Shown here piece by piece: positions 1 to 44,755 of a DNA stretch of 64,000 nucleotides. The stretch spans positions 4,290 through 68,289 of the forward strand of contig JAXGWO010000004.1 of the NCBI GenBank assembly GCA_040773245.1, given 5' to 3'. Below the pieces are notes generated by a model, which saw nothing but the letters and a program-made list of their open reading frames with translations, did no database searches and was not told where the DNA came from. The translations under genes and the position numbers were made by a program. Positions within the stretch are counted from its first letter, which is position 1. Every line of letters begins with the position of its first letter. This DNA is from PVC group bacterium. GTDB lineage: Bacteria; Auribacterota; Erginobacteria; Erginobacterales; Erginobacteraceae.

Positions 1-786
1 ATTGATGTCGGCCACCGTCATATCCGGGAGGACCCGGGTCGCCGCCACCTCGCCGACCTCCCGGTCGCCGTCAAGGACCCGGAACCGGGTCCCGGAAACC
101 ACCCCGTCACCGCTCCCCCGGTTGATGACCACGAAGTTGTAGTCCGGGTTGACCTTGAGGATGGTGCCCCGGAAAGAGGGAACCGCCTCCCGTCCTTCCT
201 TGACCAGCAGCCCCGGCATCTCGACGGTCCGGGCCGAGGCCAGGCGGTCCTGGAGTTCGCTCTTGTCGGCGAGAAGCTTCTCGATCTGGTCCAGGTAGCG
301 TTTCTGGGCTTCCCGGCTCTCCCGGAACGATTCCCTCAGCTCCGCCAGGGAGGCCTGCTCGGCCTGGAGACGTTCGTCGAGGTCCCGGTTCTGACTCTGG
401 AGGTTCTCCAGCCGGGACTCCAGAAGGATCCGGCCCGACCGCAGTTCGACCACTTCATCCTGGAGCTGACTGCGCCCGGCTTCGGCGAGGCGGAACTGAT
501 CGGCGACGTCGTTGAGCTCCCGGAGCCGGTCGGCGAGGTCCCGTTCCAGGTCCGCCGTCTGCTCCTCGGCCACCCGCCTCGCGCTGGTCTCCTCCTCCAG
601 CCGCCCGGATTGCGAACGGGTCCGGGCGAAGAGCGCGATCACCGCCACCGCCAGCAGGCCGATGATCACGGGGAAGATCAGCCGGGACAGGCCGGCCCGC
701 CCGCCGCCCGCCGGCGGTCCATCGCCGCCGGGGAAAACCTGGTCTGCCGGATTGGTTTCCTGGACCTCGTTCGCTTCGGGAGCCAT
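1..786 (-). CDS. Hypothetical membrane-anchored coiled-coil protein, 3' end truncated by the window edge. The N-terminus has one TM helix followed by a long coiled coil.
   Basis: The reverse-strand ORF starts at the ATG complementary to 784-786, preceded by an AGGAGA RBS. It is absent from the track because it runs off the window. Translation reads MAPEANEV...LIFPVIIGLLAVAVIAL then heptad-rich segments. Confidence 0.55.
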   Translation of the reverse strand, partial: MAPEANEVQETNPADQVFPGGDGPPAGGGRAGLSRLIFPVIIGLLAVAVIALFARTRSQSGRLEEETSARRVAEEQTADLERDLADRLRELNDVADQFRLAEAGRSQLQDEVVELRSGRILLESRLENLQSQNRDLDERLQAEQASLAELRESFRESREAQKRYLDQIEKLLADKSELQDRLASARTVEMPGLLVKEGREAVPSFRGTILKVNPDYNFVVINRGSGDGVVSGTRFRVLDGDREVGEVAATRVLPDMTVADIN

Positions 787-4040: not shown

Positions 4041-5048
4041 ATGAGCAGAAAAATCCTCGTGACCGGCGGGGCCGGTTTCATCGGCAGCAACTTCATCCAT
4101 TACCTGGTCCGGAATCATCCCGAAGACGAGATCGTCAACCTCGACAAGCTGACCTACGCCGGGAACCTCGACAACCTCAAGGAGGTCGAGGGGAAGGCGA
4201 ACTACCGCTTCGTGAAGGGCGACATCGCCGACCGCGAGCTGGTGGACGGTCTCTTCGGGGAAGGGCTGGACGCGGTGGTCAACTTCGCGGCCGAGACCCA
4301 CGTCGACCGCTCGATCGGCAACCCCGACGATTTCATCCGGACCGATATCTACGGCACCTACACGCTGCTCGAGGCGGCCCGCCGCCGCGGCGCGGGGTGT
4401 TTCGTCCAGATCTCCACCGACGAGGTTTACGGTTCGGTGGAGGAAGGCTTCAGCACCGAGCGCGACCCCCTGATGCCCCGCAACCCCTATGCCGCCTCCA
4501 AGGCCGGCGCCGACCGTCTGGCCTACTCCTACTTCGCCACCTACGGTCTCCCGGTTATCGTCACCCGGGCCTCGAACAACTTCGGCCCCTACCAGTACCC
4601 GGAAAAGGTCATCCCCCTCTTTGTTACCAACGCCCTCGATTCGATCCCCCTGCCGCTCTACGGCGACGGGCTCAACGTCCGCGACTGGCTCTTTGTCGGG
4701 GACCACTGCTCGGCGATCGATCTCCTGATCTCCCGGGGGGTCAGGGGGGAGGTCTACAACATCGGGGGCGGTAACCTCCTCGCCAACCGGGAACTGACCA
4801 CCCGGATCCTGGAGTACCTGGAACTCCCCGAGAGCCTGATCCGCCGGGTGAAGGACCGGGAGGGGCACGACCGGCGCTACGCCCTCGACTCCTCCAAGCT
4901 GAAGGCCCTGGGCTGGAGACCGGAAGCGGACTTCGCCAGCGAACTGAAGGCCACCATCGCCTGGTACCGCGACAACCGCTGGTGGTGGGAGAAGATCAAG
5001 AGCGGCGAGTTCAAGGAGTACTACCGGAAGCAGTACGGCCACCGGTGA
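4041..5048 (+). CDS. rmlB: dTDP-glucose 4,6-dehydratase.
   Basis: VTGGAGFIGSNF Rossmann motif, catalytic YxxxK (YAASKAGAD), 335 aa, typical RmlB. Confidence 0.9.
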   Translation: MSRKILVTGGAGFIGSNFIHYLVRNHPEDEIVNLDKLTYAGNLDNLKEVEGKANYRFVKGDIADRELVDGLFGEGLDAVVNFAAETHVDRSIGNPDDFIRTDIYGTYTLLEAARRRGAGCFVQISTDEVYGSVEEGFSTERDPLMPRNPYAASKAGADRLAYSYFATYGLPVIVTRASNNFGPYQYPEKVIPLFVTNALDSIPLPLYGDGLNVRDWLFVGDHCSAIDLLISRGVRGEVYNIGGGNLLANRELTTRILEYLELPESLIRRVKDREGHDRRYALDSSKLKALGWRPEADFASELKATIAWYRDNRWWWEKIKSGEFKEYYRKQYGHR

Positions 5049-5175: not shown

Positions 5176-6027
5176 ATGGGCGATGAGCGATCCATTCTGG
5201 TGATCGGCCACCGCGGCCTCCTCGGGAGGGCGTGTCTGGATGTCCTCTCCGGTCGGTTTTCGATCTCCGGGGTCGATCTCGACCGTTGCGATATAACCCG
5301 GCCGGACCGGATCGCGGAGTCCCTGGACGGTTTCCGTCCCCGGTGGGTGATCAACACCGCCGCCGTCACCGACGTCGACGGCTCCGAGGCCGACCCCGAA
5401 CGGGCCTGGGAGGTCAACGCCCGCGGCCCCGGGAACCTGGCCGCGGCCTGCCGCGAGCGGGGGAGCCGGCTTCTCCAGGTCAGCACCGATTTCGTCTTCG
5501 ACGGCCGGAAGGACGAACCTTACCGGGAAGACGATCCCCCGCGCCCGCTCAGCGTTTACGGGGCGAGCAAGCGGGGGGGAGAGGAGGCGGTGGCGGCGGC
5601 CGGGGGAGATTATCTGATCGTCCGGACGTCCTGGCTCTTCGGGCCCGGGGGAAAGAATTTCCCGGACACGATCCTGCGGGCGGCCGGGAGGAACCCCCGG
5701 CTGGAGGTGGTCGCCGACCAGCGGGGGGCGCCCACCTACTCGCGCGACCTGGCCGCGGGGCTGGGAGACCTGATCGAGAAGGACGCCTCCGGGATCGTCC
5801 ACCTCACCAACCGGGGGGACTGCTCCTGGTACGAGTACGCCGTCTTCATCCTCCGGACCGCCGGGATCGATGCCGAGGTCGTCCCGATCTCCAGCGGGAA
5901 ACTGGCCCGCCCGGCTCCCCGTCCCCGCTACTCGGTGCTCTCCCTGGAACGATACCGGGCGATCACCGGGAAGTCCCCCCGCCCCTGGGAGGAAGCCGTG
6001 CGGGAATATTTGGGGAGTGGGGAGTAG
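5176..6027 (+). CDS. rmlD: dTDP-4-dehydrorhamnose reductase.
   Basis: 283 aa. N-terminal ILVIGHRGLLGRA and family-wide similarity (VSTDFVFDG, YGASK). Confidence 0.85.
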   Translation: MGDERSILVIGHRGLLGRACLDVLSGRFSISGVDLDRCDITRPDRIAESLDGFRPRWVINTAAVTDVDGSEADPERAWEVNARGPGNLAAACRERGSRLLQVSTDFVFDGRKDEPYREDDPPRPLSVYGASKRGGEEAVAAAGGDYLIVRTSWLFGPGGKNFPDTILRAAGRNPRLEVVADQRGAPTYSRDLAAGLGDLIEKDASGIVHLTNRGDCSWYEYAVFILRTAGIDAEVVPISSGKLARPAPRPRYSVLSLERYRAITGKSPRPWEEAVREYLGSGE

Positions 6028-12938: not shown

Positions 12939-13010
12939 GCGGGTGTAGCTCAATGGCAGAGCTCCAGCTTCCCAAGCTGGCTACGAGGGTTCGATTCCCT
13001 TCACCCGCTT
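12939..13010 (+). tRNA. tRNA-Gly (anticodon CCC).
   Basis: Cloverleaf folded by hand. Acceptor GCGGGTG/CACCCGC, D-stem GCTC/GAGC, anticodon stem CCAGC/GCTGG with loop TTCCCAA, T-arm GGTTCGATTCC. Confidence 0.8.
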
Positions 13011-29402: not shown

Positions 29403-30284
29403 ATGAGAGAACATCCCCGGCCGTTGTTGGAAGCTTCCCTCCCGGGAGTCCCGCTCTTCGACCGGGGCAAGGTCCGGGACGTCTTCGCCGCCGGGAACGA
29501 CGTCCTGGTCGTGACCACCGACCGGGTCTTCCTCTTCGAGCAGGTCTGGCCGCAGGGGCTGGCCGGGAAGGGGGAGGTGCTGACCGCCCTGACGCTCCGC
29601 ACCTTCGAGGAGGTCCGCGGCCTGGTCCCCAACTATGTCGTCACCTCCCGGATCGAGGAGTATCCGGAGCCGTTCAACCGCTTCCCCGAAATTCTCTCCG
29701 GCCGGAGTTACCTTACCGCCAAGGTCGATCCGATCCGGGTGGAGTGCGTGATCCGGGGTTACCTCTATGGCCAGGCCTGGAAGGCCTACGAGGAGGGTGA
29801 CCGCTCCTGGCTCCCCGCCATCCCCTCGGGTCTGAGCCTGGCGGAGGAACTCCCCCGGCCCGTCTTCACCCCGGCCCGGAAGAACCGGCAGGGGGACGAC
29901 GAGAACCTCGGCCGGGACGGCCTGGTTGAGATGCTGGGGGAGGGGAGGGCGGACGAACTGAAAAGCCTCTCCCTGGCGATTTACGGCCGGATGCGGGAGG
30001 TCTTCGCCCGGTCCGGTTTCATCCTCGCCGACAGCAAGTTCGAGTTCGGGGAGAAGGACGGCCGGCTGCTGCTGATCAACGAGGCCTGCACCCCCGACTC
30101 CTCCCGGATCTGGAAGGCAGCCCGCCACCGCCCCGGCCGGGCCCAGGACCCCTGGGACAAGGAGATCCTCCAGGATTACCTGACGGCCGGAAGATGGTCG
30201 CCGGGCGATCCCTTCATACCCCTCCCTGCAGGCTTGCTCTCTGAAGCCGTCCGCCGCTTCCGGGAACTCCTGGTCGGCATCTGA
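29403..30284 (+). CDS. purC: Phosphoribosylaminoimidazole-succinocarboxamide synthase.
   Basis: SAICAR synthetase motifs GKVRDVF, ECVIRGYLYG and LADSKFEFG. Confidence 0.8.
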   Translation: MREHPRPLLEASLPGVPLFDRGKVRDVFAAGNDVLVVTTDRVFLFEQVWPQGLAGKGEVLTALTLRTFEEVRGLVPNYVVTSRIEEYPEPFNRFPEILSGRSYLTAKVDPIRVECVIRGYLYGQAWKAYEEGDRSWLPAIPSGLSLAEELPRPVFTPARKNRQGDDENLGRDGLVEMLGEGRADELKSLSLAIYGRMREVFARSGFILADSKFEFGEKDGRLLLINEACTPDSSRIWKAARHRPGRAQDPWDKEILQDYLTAGRWSPGDPFIPLPAGLLSEAVRRFRELLVGI

Positions 30285-30338
30285 CCGGCGGGCCAGGACT
30301 CCCAGTCTCTGCCCGGAACTTATTTGCTCTTATTACCG

Positions 30339-31433
30339 CTACGGATGATTGGTCGAGTCAGGGTCTACAGAGCTGCAATTAATCCAATTATTTGTACAGC
30401 CGGTTGCATATGAACTTGAGACATACCAACACTCGTTGAAACCGCTTGCGGTAGTAGAGTTCCCATCTACTCGGCAGCTGCTCAGAAAGTCACACTGATA
30501 GAATCCATTTGTCGTACAGTTATAGGCATAACAGGAGGAAGTGTTGCTGCAAACCTGTAAGCCCGAGGTGGTGCAGCCACTCGCATAGCAGGAAGAGAGG
30601 TTGTGGCATCTGAGAAAGCCGTAGGAGCATCCGTCGGCCGAGCAGCCGACCAGGCGGGAGGTGAGGTTGGAATCCACGCCCCGAAAACCGGCGTTGGCGG
30701 CGGTCCGGACCACGCAGTTGACGAAGCTCACGAACTCGGCGTCGGCGGTGTAGTGGAATCCGGAGTAGAGGCTGTTCACCGAGCGGCAGTTCTGGAGTGT
30801 CGCGTACGAGTTGGTCAGGTAAACCGTCCCGATACTCGAAGCGGTGCTCCCGCCGCCGTCGAAACGCAGGTTCTCCAGGTGGCAGTTCGGCCCCGTGACC
30901 GCGAAGTAGTAACCGTCCGCCGAGAACTGGATGATCGAGGAGTTGCTCTCCCCGACCACGTGCTTGATGTTGATGGGGACAGTGATCACCTGGCTCACGG
31001 GGTAGGTCCCGGCGGGGATGAAGACGCTGTTGTAGGTGGTGTTCTGCAGCGCTGCCACCAGGTCGGCGCCGTCGTCGGCCTTCACCACGTAGTCGTAAAG
31101 CCGCTGGCCCCCGCCGCCGCCGGTCAGGGCGGTGTCTCCCGAACTCCCGAAGTAGATCCGACTCACCCCGCGGATCGTCCAGAGGCCGGTCGTCGGCCGG
31201 AAGACCCCGATCTCGGCGACACCGTCGCCGGTGTAGTCCCCGGCGGCGGGGGTGTCCCCGAAGGTGCCGAAGTAGACCCGGGTCAAACCCCGGACCACCC
31301 AGAGCCCGGTCGAGGGCCGGAAGACGGCGATGTCGTCCCGGGAGTCGCCGTCGAAGTCGGCGGCGGGCACCGGGCCGGTCCCGGCCAGCAGGACCAGGGC
31401 CAGTACGGCGATGATGGCGGTTATCGTCCTCAT
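30339..31433 (-). CDS. Secreted protein with duplicated FG-GAP-like N-terminal repeats and a Cys-rich parallel beta-helix-like C-terminal region.
   Basis: Signal peptide; two copies of VFRPxTGLWxxRGxxRxYFGxxGD; C-terminal repeats such as CYASGCTTSGLQVC and CYAYNCTTNGFYQC. Markedly lower GC than neighbours. Confidence 0.7.
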   Translation of the reverse strand: MRTITAIIAVLALVLLAGTGPVPAADFDGDSRDDIAVFRPSTGLWVVRGLTRVYFGTFGDTPAAGDYTGDGVAEIGVFRPTTGLWTIRGVSRIYFGSSGDTALTGGGGGQRLYDYVVKADDGADLVAALQNTTYNSVFIPAGTYPVSQVITVPINIKHVVGESNSSIIQFSADGYYFAVTGPNCHLENLRFDGGGSTASSIGTVYLTNSYATLQNCRSVNSLYSGFHYTADAEFVSFVNCVVRTAANAGFRGVDSNLTSRLVGCSADGCSYGFLRCHNLSSCYASGCTTSGLQVCSNTSSCYAYNCTTNGFYQCDFLSSCRVDGNSTTASGFNECWYVSSSYATGCTNNWINCSSVDPDSTNHP

Positions 31434-31517
31434 CCTCTCTTCCTCCTTCCCGCCCGCCGGGTCTCCCGGGAGCGGATTGCGGTTAAGGGGAACGTATACC
31501 CCGGAAGCATCTTCCCC

Positions 31518-31649
31518 TCAGTTGCAGGAATGGCCGTGGCCCGGGAAGCCGCGGATGAAATCGTCGCCGTTGTATTCGTTGACGCGGGGCTGCACCCGGC
31601 CGGCGGCGAGAAGAAAGGGAATAACGACGGCAGCCAGTATCTGCATCAT
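31518..31649 (-). CDS. Small secreted peptide of 43 aa: signal peptide plus a Gly/His/Cys-containing tail.
   Basis: Strong RBS GGGAGGAGGGAAAT before the ATG. Hydrophobic N-terminus, then RVQPRVNEYNGDDFIRGFPGHGHSCN. Confidence 0.4.
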   Translation of the reverse strand: MMQILAAVVIPFLLAAGRVQPRVNEYNGDDFIRGFPGHGHSCN

Positions 31650-31738
31650 ATTTCCCTCCTCCCGACGCCAGGGCGACGGGAAAGTTAACGGGAGCAAATC
31701 AGTGGATGGGTTCTTGACTGCCCGAGCTATGTAAACCA

Positions 31739-32872
31739 CTAGCAAAAATTCTGCAAGAATTTTTGGTAGATCCGGTACTTCTTGTAGAGGGTGCCGCCCA
31801 TCATCTCGGCGGCGCGGATGACCAGGAGGTTGTCCTCCAGCAGCCAGGAGATCTCGGAGTCGACGTAGCCGAGGTCGCGGGTGGTCCGGGCCGACTCCAG
31901 GTAGAGCATACCGTCCAGCCCCTTCCTCCGGTACTCCTCCTCGATCCCGGCCATCATCAGCCGGACGGCGTCAATTTTTTTCCGCCCGAGGAGGAAACGG
32001 ATGATCCCGAGCGGACCCATCCTCCCGTTCATCTTCCTGATCACCTGGTTGTAGTCGGGGAGGACCAGGTAGAAGCCGACCGGCTTCCCCCGGTACTCGG
32101 CGAAGAAGACCAGCTCGGGTACGACCAGGGGTTTGAGCTCCCTGGCCATCGCCGCGATCTCGGCCCCGGTGATGGGGACGAAACCCCAGTTCTCCGCCCA
32201 GGCCGAGTTGTAGATCTCCCGGACGAGCTTGAGCTCGTTGTGGAAGTCGTCCATCCGGATGTTCCGGATGGCCAGCCCCTTCTCCTGGAGGACGGCCGAG
32301 AGCCTCTCCAGCCGGGGGTTCATCTCCCTCGGCACCGGGATCCGGTAGGCGAGCAGGTCCTTGGCCTTTGCCAGTCCGGCGTCCGCCATCAGGCCGTGGT
32401 AGTAGGGAAGGTTGTAGGGCATCATAAAGCGGGGCGGGGAGTCGTAGCCCTCGAGGAGAAGCCCGCAGATCCCGTTGGTGGAGGGGTTGAGGGGACCGAT
32501 CATCCTCTCCAGTCCCCGGGACCGCAGCCAATCTTCGGCGGATTTGAAGAGGGCCCGGGCCGCTTCCCGGTCGTCGAAACACTCGAAGTAACCGAAGTAA
32601 CCGGTCTTCTCCCGGTGGTACTCTATGTAATCCCGGTCCGCGATCGCCGCGATCCGTCCCGCCGGTTTCCCATCGCGGAGGGCAAGGAAGAGCGCCCGCT
32701 CGGCGTGTTCCCAGAAGGGGTGGCGGCCGGGGGTGAGGGTCTTGCGGTCCTCCCGGAGCAAGGGAGGGACCCAGTGGGGATTTCCCCGGTAGACCGCCCA
32801 GGGAAAGGTGAGAAACCGCTTCCGGTCCCGGCGGGTGGTGACTTCTTTAACCTGGAGAACGGGGGTTCCCAT
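31739..32872 (-). CDS. BioF2-like/FemAB-like GNAT-superfamily N-acyltransferase; candidate lipid N-acyltransferase.
   Basis: 377 aa. The C-terminal acyltransferase fold resembles GNAT proteins found beside alpha-oxoamine synthases. Confidence 0.7.
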   Translation of the reverse strand: MGTPVLQVKEVTTRRDRKRFLTFPWAVYRGNPHWVPPLLREDRKTLTPGRHPFWEHAERALFLALRDGKPAGRIAAIADRDYIEYHREKTGYFGYFECFDDREAARALFKSAEDWLRSRGLERMIGPLNPSTNGICGLLLEGYDSPPRFMMPYNLPYYHGLMADAGLAKAKDLLAYRIPVPREMNPRLERLSAVLQEKGLAIRNIRMDDFHNELKLVREIYNSAWAENWGFVPITGAEIAAMARELKPLVVPELVFFAEYRGKPVGFYLVLPDYNQVIRKMNGRMGPLGIIRFLLGRKKIDAVRLMMAGIEEEYRRKGLDGMLYLESARTTRDLGYVDSEISWLLEDNLLVIRAAEMMGGTLYKKYRIYQKFLQNFC

Positions 32873-32915
32873 CCGGGGTATCCTGTCGCCGGTTGCCGCT
32901 CAAGGGGAGTTCGAT

Positions 32916-32990
32916 TGCGATAGCGATACCGATAGCGATCCCGACCGGTTGCCTCTGTCCTACTCCCCACTCCCCACTGCCCACTCCCTA
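32916..32990. repeat. Adjacent hexamer-family and heptamer-family arrays (composite locus).
   Basis: GCGATAGCGATACCGATAGCGATCCCGACC followed by CTGTCCTACTCCCCACTCCCCACTGCCCACTCCC, between the SPT-like and GNAT genes. Confidence 0.7.
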
Positions 32991-34181
32991 TATAATCCCC
33001 AGCTTCTTCCCCACCTTCGCGAAAGTCTCGAGGGCGAAGTCGAGCTGCTCGTCGGTGTGGGTGGCCATAAAGCTGGTCCGGATCAGGGTCTGCTCCGGGG
33101 GGACGGCCGGGGGGACGACCGGGTTGACGAAGATCCCGGCGTCGAAGAGGAGCTTGCGCATCAGGAAGGCCTTCTCCAGGTCGCCGATGAAGATGGGGAT
33201 GATCGGGGTCTCGCTATCACCCGTGTGGAACCCCGCGGCCTTGAAACCCTGGAGCATCTTGTGGGTGATGTCCCAGAGCCGGAAACGGCGCTCCGGTTCC
33301 CCCTCGACGATGTCGAGACAGGCCGTCACCGTCGCCACCGCCGACGGGGGGAGGCTGGCGGAGAAGATCAGGGACCGGGCGAAGTGCTTGAGGTAGTGGA
33401 TCACCGACTCGGTTCCGGCCACGCAGCCCCCGATCGAGGCCAGCGACTTGCTGAAGGTGATCATAATCAGGTCGACCTCGTCCTCGAGGCCGAAATGCTC
33501 GGCCGTTCCCCGCCCGGTCTTGCCCAGCACCCCGACCGAGTGGGCGTCGTCGACCAGGACCCGGGCGTTGTATTCCCGGGCCAGCTCGACGATCCGGGGG
33601 AGGGGGGCGATGTCCCCTTCCATACTGAAGATCCCGTCGATGACGATCAGCTTGCCGTTCTCCCCGCAGCGGGAGAGGACCCGCTCGAGATCGTCCATAT
33701 CGCCGTGGGTGAACTTCTTGATCTTGCCGAAAGAGAGCCTGGTGCCGTCGATGATGCTGGCGTGGTCGAGGCGGTCGATCAGGACGGTGTCGTTCTTGCC
33801 GACCAGGGCGGAGATCGCACCCAGGTTGGCCTGGAAGCCGGTGGAGAAGACCAGGGCCGCCTCTTTCCGGAAGAAGGCGGCCAGCCGTTCCTCCAGCTGC
33901 CGGTGGATGTCGAGGGTGCCGTTGAGGAAGCGGGAGCCGGCGCAACCGGTCCCGTACTTCTCCAGGGCGGCGATGGCCGCCTCCTTGACCTTCGGATGGC
34001 AGGTCAGCCCCAGGTAGCTGTTGGAGCCGAGCATCAGGATCTTCCGGCCCTCGATCATCACCTCGGTCTCCTGGGCCGAGGCGATCTCGGTGAAGTAGGG
34101 GTAGAGCCCCGCGGCCATAATTTCCCGGGCCCGGGTGAATTCGTCGCACTTGGTGAAGAGATCAGCCATTGAATTATTCAC
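32988..34181 (-). CDS. PLP-dependent alpha-oxoamine synthase, serine palmitoyltransferase / 8-amino-7-oxononanoate synthase family.
   Basis: PLP lysine in TFSKSLAS, glycine-rich GSNSYLGL and HS/DDAHS motifs. 397 aa. Confidence 0.85.
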
Positions 34182-34224
34182 TCCCTGTGAAGAGGTCTTT
34201 TCCCGGTTGCCCGGGCAACCGGGG

Positions 34225-35208
34225 TCAGAGCCAACCGGCCTCCCGGTACCATTCGATAGTCTTCCGCAGGCCTTCCGGAAGTTGGTAACGGGGGGAAAAT
34301 CCCAGTTCGGTCCGGGCCCGGGTTATGTCGCAAACCCAGTACTTATGGCTCATCTCCCGGACTTTGTCCAGATAAAATGCCGCCGGGGAGCGGGGGAGGA
34401 GCCCGGCCACGAACCGGATGGCCGCACTCCCGGCCGTCCAGGGCACCTTGAATCGGCCGGTCCGTTTCCCCAGGTTGTCGCGCAGCAGATCGAACGTGTC
34501 TTCCCAGGTGTAGACGTTCCCGTCGGCCAGGAAATAGGTGGCCGGCTCTTCCCCCGTCCTGGCCGCCGCCAGGAGAATCCCCTCGACAACGTCCCGGACG
34601 TGGACCGCGGAGAAGGTCGAGCCCCGGCCTCCCGGCTGGAATCTCCAGCCCCGGCCGGCCATCCGGATCAGCTGGAGGGTCTCCCGGTCTCCCGGCCCGT
34701 AAACGGCCGCCGGTCTCAGGATGGTTACCGCGAAACTGTCCCGGAAACGGCCGGCCTCCTCCTCCGCCGCCAGCTTGCTCTCCCCGTAAAGGCTGACCGG
34801 ATGGGGGGCTTCCTCCTCCCGCCGGGGACGGCCGTCGGGACTGGGGCCGGCGGCGGAGAGACTGGAGACGAAAATAAACCGTTTGACCTGGCGGGTTTCC
34901 CGGGCCGCTTCCAGGAGGTTCCCGGTCCCTTCGAGGTTGGCCGCCAGGAACTCCCTTCGGCTCCGCCCCCGGACGCGGCCCGCCAGGTGGAATACCGTGT
35001 CCATCCCCTCCAGGGCGTCCCGCAGGGAAGCCCGGTCCCCCAGCTCCCCGATCGCCACCTCCACGCCTTCCCGGGGGAGGCGTTCCCGGGAACTGGCCGC
35101 GCGGAGCAGGCAGCGGACCTGCCAGCCCCGGCTCCGGAGACTTCCGGCCAGATGGCTGCCGATAAACCCGCTGGCCCCCGTGATCAGGGCCAATTTTTCC
35201 TCGCCCAT
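34225..35208 (-). CDS. NAD-dependent epimerase/dehydratase-family (extended SDR) reductase.
   Basis: [12 protein letters not shown] Rossmann motif and YGESK catalytic dyad. 327 aa. Confidence 0.85.
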
Positions 35209-43042: not shown

Positions 43043-44755
43043 ATGCATGACGGAATTTATAAGAAAAGATCCCGGACCGTCTTCGGTGTATTTTTGATTT
43101 TTTCCTTCCTCCTCCTCACCCGGCTCTTCGGGCTCCAGTGCCTCCAGCATTCCCGCTACCGCCTCCAGGCCCGGGACCAGCAGCAGAGCACCCACTACCT
43201 CCCCCCCCGCCGCGGGGTGATCTATGACTGCCGGGGGAATATGCTGGCCGCCAGCATCCCCTCCTTCTCCCTCTACGCCGTCCCCCGCGAGGTCCCCCCC
43301 GAGCGGGTCGGCGAGATCGCGGAGCTCCTGGCCCCGGTGGTCGGGCAGGAGCCGGAGACCATCCGCGCCCGGCTCACCGGCGACCGGTGGTTCGCCTGGC
43401 TGAAACGCCACCTGGAGGATGCGGAGGTCGAACGGATCCGGCAGCTCGCCCTCCCCGGGATCGCGCTCCGGGAGGACCGGCGGCGGGTTTATCCGAAGGG
43501 GATCCTGCTCAGCCAGGTGCTGGGGTTCACCGATCCCGACGGCAACGGACTGGAGGGGCTGGAGGCGAAGTTCGACCGGCAGCTCAAGGGTAGGCCCGGC
43601 TGGCTGCTGACCGAGAGGGATGGTGCGCGGCGGGAGGTGACCTGGCACCGTTCCCACTCCCTCGATCCGATCGACGGCTGCAACATCCACCTGACGGTGG
43701 ACGAGGTCATCCAGTCGATCGCCGAGGAGGCGGTGGAAGGGGTCTATCACCGTTACGGGGCGGGCTGGGCCCTGGTCCTGGTGATGGAGCCGGCGACCGG
43801 AAAGATCCTGGCCCTGGCCAACCGCCCTACCTTCGACCCCAACTTCTACGCCCGCTCCACCGCCGAGCAGAGGCGCAACCGGGCGATCACCGACCCGATC
43901 GAGCCCGGCTCGACCTTCAAGGTCTTCCCCGCCGCCGCCGCCCTGGAAGCCGGGCTGGTCGCCCCCGAGACCGAGTTCTACTGCGAGGACGGAGCCTACT
44001 GGATCGGGGGACGGCTGCTGAGGGACAGCAGCCCTCACGGCATCCTCCGTTTCGAGGAGATACTACATAAATCCAGCAACATCGGGATGGCCAAGGTGGG
44101 GGCGATGATGGGGGCGGAGAAGCTCCACCGGTCCCTGGTCCGGTTCGGGATCGGGCGTTCCTACGGGTTTGAGCTTCCCGGCGAGTCGCCGGGGGTGCTC
44201 CGCCCCCCCCGGGAATGGTCCGCGCTCTCGCTGCGGTCCATCACGATGGGGCACGAGGTCTCGATGACCGCCCTCGGACTTCTCACCGCCTTCTCCGCCC
44301 TCGGCAACGGCGGGGTGCTGGTCCAGCCCCGGATCGTCGACCGGGTGGAGACCCCCGCCGGCGAGGTCATCCACCGCTACCCGGTGAAAGAACGGGGCCG
44401 GGTGGTCTCGGAGAGGACCGCCCGCCAGATGCTGGATATCCTGAGCCGGGTGGCGACCGAGGCCGGGACCGCGCGGCGGGCCGCCATCGAAGGTTTCACG
44501 GTGGCGGGGAAGACGGGGACCGCCCAGAAACTTTCCCCGGAGGGGGGGTATTCCCACGATCTTCACCGGGCGCTGTTTATGGGGCTGATCCCGGCCGAAC
44601 GGCCGCAGCTGGCGATCTTGGTGGTGGTCGACGAGCCGCGTCCGGAGTATTACGGTGGGGTGGTGGCGGCCCCCGTCTTCCGGGAAGTCGGGGAGAGGAT
44701 CATCCGCTACCTGGACCTGGCCGCGGCTTCGGCGGACCGGGGGGCCCGATCGTGA
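43043..44755 (+). CDS. ftsI: Penicillin-binding protein transpeptidase FtsI (PBP3).
   Basis: N-terminal TM helix, dimerisation domain, STFK (GSTFKVF), SSN and KTGT motifs. Confidence 0.9.
   Translation: MHDGIYKKRSRTVFGVFLIFSFLLLTRLFGLQCLQHSRYRLQARDQQQSTHYLPPRRGVIYDCRGNMLAASIPSFSLYAVPREVPPERVGEIAELLAPVVGQEPETIRARLTGDRWFAWLKRHLEDAEVERIRQLALPGIALREDRRRVYPKGILLSQVLGFTDPDGNGLEGLEAKFDRQLKGRPGWLLTERDGARREVTWHRSHSLDPIDGCNIHLTVDEVIQSIAEEAVEGVYHRYGAGWALVLVMEPATGKILALANRPTFDPNFYARSTAEQRRNRAITDPIEPGSTFKVFPAAAALEAGLVAPETEFYCEDGAYWIGGRLLRDSSPHGILRFEEILHKSSNIGMAKVGAMMGAEKLHRSLVRFGIGRSYGFELPGESPGVLRPPREWSALSLRSITMGHEVSMTALGLLTAFSALGNGGVLVQPRIVDRVETPAGEVIHRYPVKERGRVVSERTARQMLDILSRVATEAGTARRAAIEGFTVAGKTGTAQKLSPEGGYSHDLHRALFMGLIPAERPQLAILVVVDEPRPEYYGGVVAAPVFREVGERIIRYLDLAAASADRGARS

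Follow-up and report, generated by a model that had tools for sequence, protein, structure and literature searches.

Organisation of the locus

The segment at 30300-31700 of the window (the whole 64-kb stretch of DNA that was analysed) carries on its minus strand a gene for a secreted 364-aa protein, with an N-terminal pair of FG-GAP-type repeats and a C-terminal parallel beta-helix, and upstream of it a 43-aa ORF (Table 1). The 364-aa protein has an identical database entry, and independent contigs carry the same gene call. Against its orthologues the gene body has a dN/dS of 0.18-0.21.

Table 1. Features of the segment and the evidence on which each was placed
Feature	Position in window	Strand	Basis
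43-aa ORF, apparent head-to-tail remnant of an upstream tandem paralogue	31518..31649	-	blastn against L007
RBS GGGAGGAGGG of the 43-aa ORF, apparently inherited from the lost paralogue	31654..31663	-	sequence
Putative deletion junction, microhomology of the type CTCGCCGCCGGCCG	31597..31610	-	two blastn alignments overlap at query 191-204
Gene of the secreted 364-aa FG-GAP/beta-helix protein, including its stop codon	30339..31433	-	ORF
RBS GGAAGGAGG of the 364-aa gene	31442..31450	-	sequence; conserved in L007, L005 and L009
Signal peptide, aa 1-25, MRTITAIIAVLALVLLAGTGPVPA/AD	31359..31433	-	sequence; model helix at residues 2-17
Two FG-GAP-type repeats, aa 26-100	31134..31358	-	Pfam, DNA repeat D1, model
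Gly-rich linker DTALTGGGGG, aa 101-110	31104..31133	-	pLDDT drops to 61; G106-G109 nearly invariant
Right-handed parallel beta-helix, aa 111-356	30366..31103	-	AlphaFold2, Foldseek, family profile
Mosaic 3' patch, codons ~290-364 and 3' UTR	30296..30569	-	GC3, DNA and amino acid identity, pS

Base composition and genomic context

The earlier note had taken the whole segment for a low-GC islet. Two real dips in GC are present, to be set against a window mean of 0.662 (SD 0.05 in 300-nt windows): one at 30201-30700, with a minimum of 0.483, and one at about 31550-31850, with a GC of 0.56. The core between them, however, has a GC of 0.69-0.74, above the window average. The second dip is ordinary AT-rich intergenic and 5' UTR DNA together with the end, likewise AT-rich, of the acyltransferase gene upstream. 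The first is a genuine codon-usage anomaly: GC3 falls to 0.45-0.47 in codons 290-364, but codons 1-300 are host-like (0.80-0.96). Relative to 64-codon windows of 46 likely genes in the window (GC3 0.885 +/- 0.069), the last ~75 codons lie more than 6 SD under the mean, and the resulting 3' patch of ~275 bp is the sole compositionally foreign section of the segment. The only other low-GC3 outlier, at 44215-44755, is an artefact, an out-of-frame ORF extension across a penicillin-binding-protein gene. RNA folding z-scores for hairpins in the UTRs are not significant.

The 364-aa gene is found at the same position in three related genomes (L005, L007 and L009), where the orthologous protein is 60-76% identical and the shared gene order is epimerase, Spt-like, GNAT, one or two FG-GAP/beta-helix genes, SAICAR synthase (convergent) and BacA. 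Scanned against metagenomes, the gene body returned one orthologous locus (P0002 = L005/L006) and two distant loci only. The tRNA genes are all distant from the locus, the closest being at 12939 and 39423, and a search for direct repeats flanking the locus found none. Since the gene lies in the same place in three relatives and has host-like GC3 in its first 300 codons, it is not an acquired islet; to judge from its sequence and surroundings it is vertically inherited, at a conserved position on the chromosome.

An acquired low-GC islet, in which an adhesin-like gene would cooperate with a cognate small secreted peptide, could in theory explain the GC dips at either end of the segment, the strong RBSs and hydrophobic N-termini of both ORFs and the calling of the small ORF as a gene on independent contigs. 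Such an origin is nevertheless highly improbable, given the gene order kept in relatives, the above-average GC and host-like GC3 of the gene core, and a small ORF that is absent as such from L005, L007 and L009 and that along its whole length is homologous to the start and the end of a 371-aa paralogue. The marks of a genomic island (absence from relatives, atypical composition throughout, and flanking tRNA, integrase or repeats) are not seen at this locus.

Origin of the 43-aa ORF

At the position of the 43-aa ORF, two of the relatives have a gene of 368-371 aa (L005 and L007) and the third, L009, has no called gene. Blastn aligns the 5' part of the region to L007 1264-1465 (85% identical) and the 3' part to L007 2430-2665 (81%), and both flanking intergenic regions also align to the flanks of the L007 paralogue (81-85% DNA identity). 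In L007 and L005 the intact paralogue is preceded by the same 5' UTR, RBS and start codon. Where the two alignments overlap there is an imperfect microhomology of 14 nt, and sequences of the same CTCGCCGCCGGCCG type lie in the intact paralogue at both ends of the ~978 bp that are missing here. The alignments identify the 43-aa ORF as an apparent deletion scar of a neighbouring paralogue. An in-frame deletion of ~978 bp between the ~14-nt microhomologies would have removed almost the whole of the upstream tandem copy and joined the promoter-proximal UTR, the RBS and the first 18 codons to the last 25 codons and the stop codon, creating the 43-aa ORF. Four independent assemblies show exactly this arrangement.

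That the ORF lies upstream on the minus strand and has a strong RBS is as first described; the N-terminus that it encodes is hydrophobic. The proposal that it specifies a cognate small secreted peptide is not supported: the product consists of the head and tail of the deleted paralogue, it forms a singleton cluster without a homologue as a small protein, and the signal-peptide cleavage region (TPA/AD of the parent) was lost at the junction. Neither conservation as a small ORF nor co-occurrence with a partner, as expected of a precursor or small secreted peptide, was found.

A different possibility is that the fusion, although born by deletion, now encodes an expressed micropeptide with a function in the membrane or as a secreted product. 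The reading frame survived the deletion and the strong translation signals are intact. From the parent the ORF keeps the promoter-proximal UTR with the RBS and start codon, the hydrophobic segment and the ...HSCN tail, and the arrangement is fixed across all sampled contigs. However, one random deletion in three stays in frame, the dN/dS of the 25 C-terminal remnant codons is about 1.05 (a tiny sample), the signal-peptidase region of the parent is gone and there is no independent occurrence elsewhere. A present function for the micropeptide is thus a distinctly long shot, and a simple deletion scar is the preferred reading.

The low-GC 3' patch

On entering the 3' patch, DNA identity to the orthologues passes from about 90% to unalignable, and amino acid identity is 43-49% in the patch compared with 90.6% in the middle of the protein. 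Synonymous divergence from the orthologues (pS) is 0.22-0.26 in the gene body but reaches saturation in the patch (0.80-0.87). The divergence continues across the 3' UTR, and the patch encodes one more 22-aa coil than the closest orthologues have. The protein ends in a DSTNxP tail that is common only to it and to P0002-P0004. The 3' ends of the orthologues show a milder GC3 dip (0.72-0.74), so an intrinsic property of the gene end could contribute to the composition of the patch. Members of the family are known in genomes of ~51% GC, with a GC3 of 0.49-0.64.

The patch fits a recombined-in, diverged allele of lower GC. Homologous recombination would have exchanged the 3' end of the surviving gene, its last ~75 codons together with the 3' UTR, leaving a tract with a GC3 of 0.45, saturated synonymous divergence and one added coil. 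The incoming allele would have belonged to the same orthologue group, because the derived ...DSTNxP tail is shared, and would have been far more diverged and of lower GC. Searches for a donor gave no close match: the best identity was 49% when 1.84 billion cluster representatives were searched exhaustively with HMMER, and at most 49-51% once JGI metagenomes and the top 120 homologues were added to these. A JGI metagenome scan and searches of phage proteins and phage DNA found no donor. The best HMMER match in the donor search, P0121, is a spurious one to a Cys-repeat (HRM-domain) protein. Within the 64-kb window there is no second copy of 30250-30700, the best chance matches being 20 nt or shorter, nor is there any sign of silent cassettes or dedicated recombination machinery.

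The patch could alternatively have diverged in place, through local AT-biased fast mutation of the helix tip with no imported DNA, the cause being a diversity-generating retroelement or other targeted hypermutation, or else relaxed selection. The empty donor searches, the tail common to the orthologues and their own mild 3' dip in GC3 would all suit such a process. Against it, the saturated synonymous sites lie beside 179 adjoining codons of low pS, which means that selection on the protein cannot be the cause. Divergence in place also sits poorly with the span of the change, which takes in the 3' UTR and the 22-aa coil indel, and with the comparison of L007 and L005, whose C-terminal pS is only 0.37, far below saturation (gene body 0.19). 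A diversity-generating retroelement target was rejected, the 64-kb window holding no copy of a template repeat. Divergence in place is therefore considered rather unlikely, and import of an allele by recombination is favoured.

The source is a metagenome-assembled genome and the family is multi-copy and tandem, a situation prone to assembler mis-joins, so that the patch, the deletion or both might be suspected of being assembly artefacts, produced by a chimeric join to another organism's homologue or by collapse of tandem paralogues. This is barely credible, however. Four contigs, each assembled from a different sequencing run, match the window at 99.975-100% identity across 8 kb that include both features. 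The patch is bordered on both sides by DNA syntenic with the relatives, and a chimera would for this reason require two switches inside 300 bp. The imperfect 14-nt microhomology at the deletion junction is, moreover, far below the usual k-mers of metagenome assembly.

The locus, then, quite probably consists of one intact family member, an in-frame deleted tandem paralogue and a recombined-in 3' patch, all within a setting of vertical inheritance. For genome scanning the lesson is that a GC dip combined with a small ORF behind a strong RBS can mimic an acquired gene-and-peptide pair; here, recombination within the gene and the scar of a deletion would account for the islet-like appearance.

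Architecture of the 364-aa protein

The identification of a signal peptide followed by two FG-GAP repeats is borne out by the sequence and by Pfam. The signal peptide is of the Sec/SPase I type, without a lipobox Cys, and the residues A25-D26 at its end are invariant in 86 homologues. The Pfam FG-GAP model (PF01839) matches aa 24-42 with 29.7 bits, above its cut-off of 22.1, and it also matches 84 of the 86 homologues, in which the FG-GAP pair is the most conserved section. Each repeat has a D-x-D/N-G-D-x-x-x-D/E loop and an invariant Trp; the loops themselves, D26-F-D-G-D-S-R-D-D34 and D66-Y-T-G-D-G-V-A-E74, are nearly invariant. In the DNA the two units form a 119-nt direct repeat, D1, of 71% identity (31128-31366). 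Over nucleotides 180-330, in the FG-GAP region, the gene is slightly nearer to the L007 upstream paralogue than to the orthologue, a signal too weak for a claim of gene conversion.

The AlphaFold2 model (pLDDT 92.2 overall) has two 4-stranded blades followed by a beta-helix with an N-cap helix at 122-129 and then about 9 coils. The pLDDT is 95-99 across aa 120-356, a three-stranded right-handed coil fold. The proposed parallel beta-helix of Cys-framed coils is thereby upheld, as it is by Foldseek and by the period of 18-21 aa at which coils such as CYASGCTTSGLQVC and CYAYNCTTNGFYQC recur. The coil register is [N/S]C-x4-(C)-x3-GF-x2-C, and the narrow C-terminal coils are filled by ladders of Cys, Phe, Ser and Asn. 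Pfam matches of the 364-aa protein to Beta_helix and Pect-lyase models are weak: PF13229 gives 18.9 bits against a cut-off of 25.9 and PF12708 gives 16.9 bits against one of 27, both under threshold, with better scores in relatives (best E-value 7.3e-10).

Regularly spaced Cys can suggest a helix stapled by disulfides, as the earlier note had it. In that form the idea is not supported, since the mature Cys count ranges from 10 to 22 across the family and is odd in 38 of the 86 members, rather than even and conserved as expected of disulfide stapling. The odd counts imply that the Cys columns act as core ladders and not as obligate disulfide pairs. Among disulfide-braced beta-helices, the antifreeze protein of Tenebrio molitor has Cys in pairs on 12-aa coils. 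The resemblance to it lies in the short coils and in the regularly spaced Cys that face a narrow helix core; the 364-aa protein differs in having three Cys columns per coil instead of a pair and coils of 18-24 aa, there is no sequence similarity, and an odd Cys count is common in its family.

A lineage-restricted secreted family

A homologue search with the 364-aa protein gave 1644 matches. Among the species representatives searched, a set that does not include the genome of the window itself, full-length members are confined to MAGs that belong to the PVC group or are unclassified. There are several members per MAG, in tandem arrays of 2-3, and the same lineage also encodes proteins with long runs of FG-GAP repeats (L017 and L019). 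The family is large, lineage-restricted and tandemly amplified, and comes from uncultured PVC-group bacteria; across it the N-terminal module is conserved and the helix surface is variable. The 364-aa gene is an ordinary member.

The locus documents a family of secreted proteins that is abundant, tandem and uncharacterised, from PVC-group bacteria of which little is known. Its members unite an FG-GAP module and a Cys-laddered beta-helix, and copy turnover and tip exchange appear to be ongoing in it. The family touches no major open question, and is a reasonable entry to the cell-surface biology of these uncultured organisms.

Fold relatives and possible function

Foldseek places the model among pectate-lyase-like folds in the PDB with a probability of 1.0, its matches being beta-helix enzymes, adhesins and tailspikes. 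Named relatives of this PbH1 type are the Klebsiella phage K64-1 depolymerase S2-4 (9k4a), phi29 gp12 (3gq7), AlgE4, GH87, PL6 and the PfbA adhesin. The family profile finds 9k4a at 1e-11 and gp12 at 4e-9, with the 'N-C-x8-10-G-F/I' coil motif aligned to the repeats of both, and Pfam Pect-lyase_RHGA_epim matches 48 of the 86 family members. The differences are considerable, however. Identity to the PbH1 structures is only 9-16%, with TM-scores of 0.3-0.48; the 364-aa protein itself stays under the Pfam cut-offs for Beta_helix and Pect-lyase; the acidic residues ahead of GF/GI in the 9k4a and gp12 repeats are not conserved; and the C-terminal coils, with their three Cys columns, are narrower than usual (18-21 aa). 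In place of a virion-binding or CBM domain there is an N-terminal FG-GAP pair. The phage records searched contain no homologue, and a viral origin was rejected, as IMG/VR contigs match the FG-GAP module only.

The FG-GAP module shares its D-x-D/N-G-D-x-x-x-D loops with FG-GAP/VCBS propellers of the integrin alpha type (PF01839), each repeat being modelled as a 4-stranded blade, and NCBI names the relatives 'VCBS repeat-containing protein'. A closed propeller takes about seven repeats, whereas only two are present, so the module cannot form a canonical propeller on its own chain. Probably able to bind Ca2+, as its loops suggest, the pair would after export give a constant attachment or oligomerisation function. 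The beta-helix, with its conserved core and variable surface, would present a variable face that binds or possibly cleaves glycans, and the C-terminal coils would form its distal tip.

In mosaic receptor-binding genes of phages and in polymorphic families of surface proteins, C-terminal tips are exchanged by recombination. The family resembles these systems by analogy, in that a conserved N-terminal anchor is combined with an exchanged, diverged C-terminal tip, and tandem arrays show gene gain and loss; it differs from them in that a single exchange event is documented. It is conceivable, if unlikely, that the distal C-terminal coils are modularly exchanged between lineages of different GC, with the joint placed in-register inside a coil, that copies are born and die in tandem, and that the nearly invariant FG-GAP pair builds a tailspike-like multimer at the surface of the cell. 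If so, a recent tip swap and a recent loss of a copy are both on view at this one locus.

The 364-aa protein has no NCBIfam match, no experimentally studied homologue and no informative operon partner, and its function is probably extracellular glycan binding or cleavage, a role to which only inference from fold and sequence points. Binding would be preferred over a fixed catalytic site, the acidic residues that enzymes carry before GF/GI not being conserved. The conserved positions of the helix are Cys, Gly-Phe, Ser and Asn, and enzyme-like 'DDG' positions are not conserved. Of two acidic residues that stack with one coil between their positions, E162 is conserved in 83% of members and E187 in 87%. 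The pair might make up a catalytic or metal site, and an enzyme would then be the likelier reading.

The gene and its inheritance

The earlier note had described this segment as a low-GC islet of horizontally acquired cargo. Two dips in GC are indeed present, at 30201-30700 (minimum 0.483) and about 31550-31850 (0.56), against a window mean of 0.662, but the core between them lies at 0.69-0.74, so that the term fits the dips and not the core. A plus-strand ORF at 30603..31688 is an antisense shadow, usual for a high-GC gene, since it is the minus frame that has the GC3 of 0.8-0.96.

The gene was not acquired as an islet. Its codons 1-300 have a host-like GC3 (0.80-0.96; adjacent genes 0.85-0.92), and neither tRNA genes close by nor flanking direct repeats were found. 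It sits in an order common to the window and relatives (contigs L005-L010): XdhC, an epimerase-family reductase, a Spt-like aminotransferase, a 377-aa GNAT-like protein, one or two FG-GAP/beta-helix genes, the convergent SAICAR synthase, BacA, phosphoglucomutase and a sigma-70 factor. The product shares 75% amino acid identity with that of L005/L006, 76% with L007/L008 and 60% with L009/L010 (a 'PVC group bacterium' MAG), and contigs from several sequencing runs encode an identical protein. Compared with its orthologues in L007 and L005, the body of the gene has a dN/dS of 0.18-0.21 and is thus under purifying selection.

Features of the locus and of the main gene product
Feature	Position	Strand	Details
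Main gene	30339..31433	minus	ORF, 364 aa
43-aa ORF	31518..31649	minus	preceded by GGGAGGAGGG
GNAT-like acyltransferase (bCerS-like)	31739-32872	minus	377 aa
Serine-palmitoyltransferase-like enzyme	32988-34181	minus	NF047600, 594.8 bits vs cut-off 640
NAD-dependent epimerase-family reductase (CerR-like)	34225-35208	minus	
SAICAR synthase	29403-30284		293 aa; convergent
DNA direct repeat (both FG-GAP units)	31128-31366		119 nt, 71% identity
AT-rich inverted repeat	31739-31769		14-nt arms, 93% complementary, 3-nt loop
Hexamer repeats, Spt-like/GNAT-like spacer	32905-32945		GATCGCTATCGGTATCGCTATCGCAATCG
Protein segment	aa 111-281		90.6% identity to homologues P0002/P0003
Protein segment	aa 282-364		43-49% identity to P0002/P0003
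Signal helix	residues 2-17		AlphaFold2 model
Two four-stranded blades	36-65, 74-94		AlphaFold2 model
Flexible Gly linker			AlphaFold2 model, pLDDT 61
Capping helix	122-129		AlphaFold2 model
Beta-helix	up to residue 356		AlphaFold2 model, about nine coils, pLDDT 95-99

A divergent 3' end

GC3 falls to 0.46 in codons 301-364, the sole true outlier among 2736 sliding 64-codon windows from 46 likely genes (mean 0.885, SD 0.069); a second apparent outlier, at 44215-44755, comes from an ORF extended out of frame. Identity at the DNA level with the orthologues of L007 and L005 stays near 90% as far as roughly 30570-30590 and beyond that collapses, across the stop codon and 3' UTR, up to the SAICAR gene. 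Synonymous differences reach a proportion of 0.80-0.87 (saturated) in this patch versus 0.22-0.26 in the preceding 179 codons, and only 0.37 between the L007 and L005 orthologues over the same C-terminal region. Selection on the protein could not produce such saturation, and it points to an origin of the patch in a lineage that is much older or differs in composition. The window protein also has one extra 22-aa coil, missing from its three closest orthologues.

The patch probably arose when a diverged allele of lower GC recombined homologously into the gene, with an in-register join inside coil 281-299. The tail ...DSTNxP, in which Thr replaces the family's terminal Cys, is common only to the homologues P0002-P0004, which places the source of the incoming segment in the same orthologue group. 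Lower-GC donors plausibly exist, since genomes of ~51% GC (L053, L054) harbour family members with GC3 of 0.49-0.64; no donor was found among homologues, cluster representatives, JGI metagenomes or in phage protein and DNA searches. Because the orthologues too have a dip in GC3 at this end, though a milder one (0.72-0.74), we infer the recombination step and do not take it as observed. A DGR-type mechanism is not supported, as no template repeat lies in the window.

The neighbouring SAICAR synthase varies in C-terminal length, with 314 aa in L005 (7029-7973) and 291 aa in L009, and the L005 copy runs over the end of the beta-helix gene. The patch may thus reach as far as the 3' end of the SAICAR gene, or a little way inside it.

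The 43-aa ORF

An ORF of 43 aa with a strong RBS does lie upstream, as the earlier note reported, but its reading as a small secreted partner of the larger protein does not survive comparison with L005 and L007. There the gap between the GNAT gene and the orthologue of the main gene is filled by a full-length second paralogue (368 and 371 aa). The 313-nt spacer of the window aligns with L007 in two blocks. One (85% identity to L007 1264-1465) runs from the GNAT gene end through the 5' UTR and RBS to about codon 18; the other (81% to 2430-2665) covers the final ~25 codons with their stop, the intergenic stretch downstream and the beginning of the gene that follows. They overlap in a ~14-nt microhomology (window 31597-31610), which the intact gene carries at each of the two sites. 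The head of the ORF, MMQILAAVVIPFLLAAGR, aligns with MMQILAAVLLLFLLATGR of the paralogue, and its tail, ...VNEYNGDDFIRGFPGHGHSCN*, with ...VNAYNGCDYFYGPDVVGHQNSCN*. As judged from these DNA and protein matches, the ORF is a scar left in frame by the loss of about 978 bp (326 codons). Such an origin explains the 'very strong RBS', the hydrophobic N-terminus and the GHGHSC tail; the usual family C-terminus is ...SC[DN]. Assembly collapse is ruled out by four independently assembled contigs that are 99.975-100% identical over 8 kb. Nor does the ORF behave as a precursor peptide: as a small protein, its product stands alone in a set of 15 billion sequences, where it forms a singleton. The cleavage-site region of the parent was lost at the junction, and dN/dS is about 1.05 in the tail (25 codons only).

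Between L007 and L005, the upstream paralogue (L007 1413-2528, L005 4834-5940), which is the copy lost from the window, evolves much faster than the downstream copy (dN/dS about 0.74 versus 0.18-0.46 in segments of the downstream gene). Nucleotides 180-330 of the window gene (31104-31253, in the FG-GAP region) match the upstream paralogue of L007 slightly better (47-53/60) than the orthologue (42-46/60), which hints at past gene conversion between tandem copies.

Structure and likely role of the protein

The earlier description of a secreted protein with two FG-GAP repeats and Cys-framed coils is borne out; its interpretation is largely replaced. An N-terminal Sec-type signal peptide (MRTITAIIAVLALVLLAGTGPVPA|AD), marking the protein as exported, is followed by the two repeats (Pfam FG-GAP, 29.7 bits vs cut-off 22.1), a GGGGG linker and a coil series of register [N/S]C-x4-(C)-x3-GF-x2-C, whose period narrows from 24 aa to 18-21 aa. 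AlphaFold2, run with 86 homologues, predicts with pLDDT 92.2 and pTM 0.79 the parallel beta-helix that had been proposed. The disulfide stapling proposed with it is not supported: mature Cys counts of 10-22 are odd in 38 of the 86 members, which argues for Cys ladders in place of a fully stapled helix. Among the 86, almost no variation is seen in the FG-GAP pair or in the helix N-cap. In the helix, the conserved columns (Cys, Gly-Phe, Ser, Asn) are ladder or core positions and the surface is variable; the sole candidate functional residues are E162 (83%) and E187 (87%), one coil apart.

Foldseek groups the model with generic pectate-lyase-like folds (E 1e-5 to 1e-3, identity 9-15%, TM-scores 0.3-0.47), including GH87 glucanase, AlgE4 epimerase, PfbA adhesin, the Sf6 and CBA120 tailspikes, phi29 gp12 and PL6 lyases, and the hits in a viral structure library are tailspikes and 'pectate lyase superfamily' proteins. 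Through a repeated 'nC-x9-GF' coil motif, the profile of the family hits the Klebsiella phage K64-1 depolymerase (1e-11) and phi29 gp12 (4e-9); however, the aligned enzymes have acidic residues ahead of GF/GI, where the family lacks conservation. Pfam finds FG-GAP in 84/86 members, Pect-lyase_RHGA_epim in 48/86 and Beta_helix in 25/86, and NCBIfam gives no match. In fold, and probably in working, the protein resembles PbH1 beta-helix proteins; single-sequence Pfam beta-helix thresholds are not reached, and the FG-GAP repeats are bona fide but fewer than the number that defines a propeller. The protein is best filed as an uncharacterised lineage-specific family assembled from known modules.

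The FG-GAP pair has loops of the DxDxDGxxD type, which in integrin-type repeats bind Ca2+. It may have a constant anchoring or oligomerisation role, and the inability of two blades to close a propeller alone would fit oligomerisation. The beta-helix would then offer a variable glycan-binding, possibly glycan-cleaving, surface. Should the overall explanation of the locus hold, the chances of a binding or adhesion role are roughly even, an enzymatic role is appreciably less probable, and some other role takes what remains. The outcome is mainly a clean account of the GC and ORF anomaly, and it also documents tandem amplification, paralogue loss and intragenic mosaicism at the recombined tip in an unstudied surface-protein family.

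Family distribution and neighbouring sequences

Detectable relatives number 1644, with full-length members confined to MAGs that bear the label 'PVC group bacterium', 'bacterium' or 'uncultured bacterium' and none in phage records or viral contigs. Genomes hold several members, often in tandem arrays of 2-3 beside multi-repeat FG-GAP proteins. The FG-GAP unit alone is common to many other secreted proteins of Auribacterota and Erginobacter MAGs (C39-like peptidases, EEP nucleases, metallophosphatases, GH26, Lcl-like proteins) and occurs in Acidobacteriota proteins. Other MAGs have 2-3 members in tandem (L013, L015) or about 1.4 kb apart (L014), and in L017 and L019 a member is found amid genes in which the FG-GAP unit recurs in long runs, a layout that suggests dedicated surface-protein gene clusters. 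The Cys-framed coil also ends much larger proteins (P0123, P0124, P0127 and P0159; 655-1095 aa) and thus seems to serve as a helix-end module that can be reused outside the family.

A GC-rich hairpin ends at or just before the GGAGG ribosome-binding site of every FG-GAP/beta-helix gene examined (window 31449-31476; L007 ~2569-2596; L005 ~4799-4830 and ~5969-5987; L009 just before 6001); stem sequences vary between genes and genomes, and folding z-scores are not significant. The AT-rich inverted repeat across the GNAT-like stop codon adds to the second GC dip, and L005 and L007 have comparable AT-rich sequence at this position. The three co-oriented genes directly upstream (31739-35208) look like a bacterial ceramide-synthesis set by comparison with the spt/bcerS/cerR scheme (PMC11087976). 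L005 and L009 show synteny for all three, and on the short L007 contig just the GNAT-like gene is seen. Hexamer repeats occupy the Spt-like/GNAT-like spacer, and in L009 the spacer before the beta-helix gene (5757-6001) is packed with GGTTAC/GTAACC-type hexamers in both orientations.
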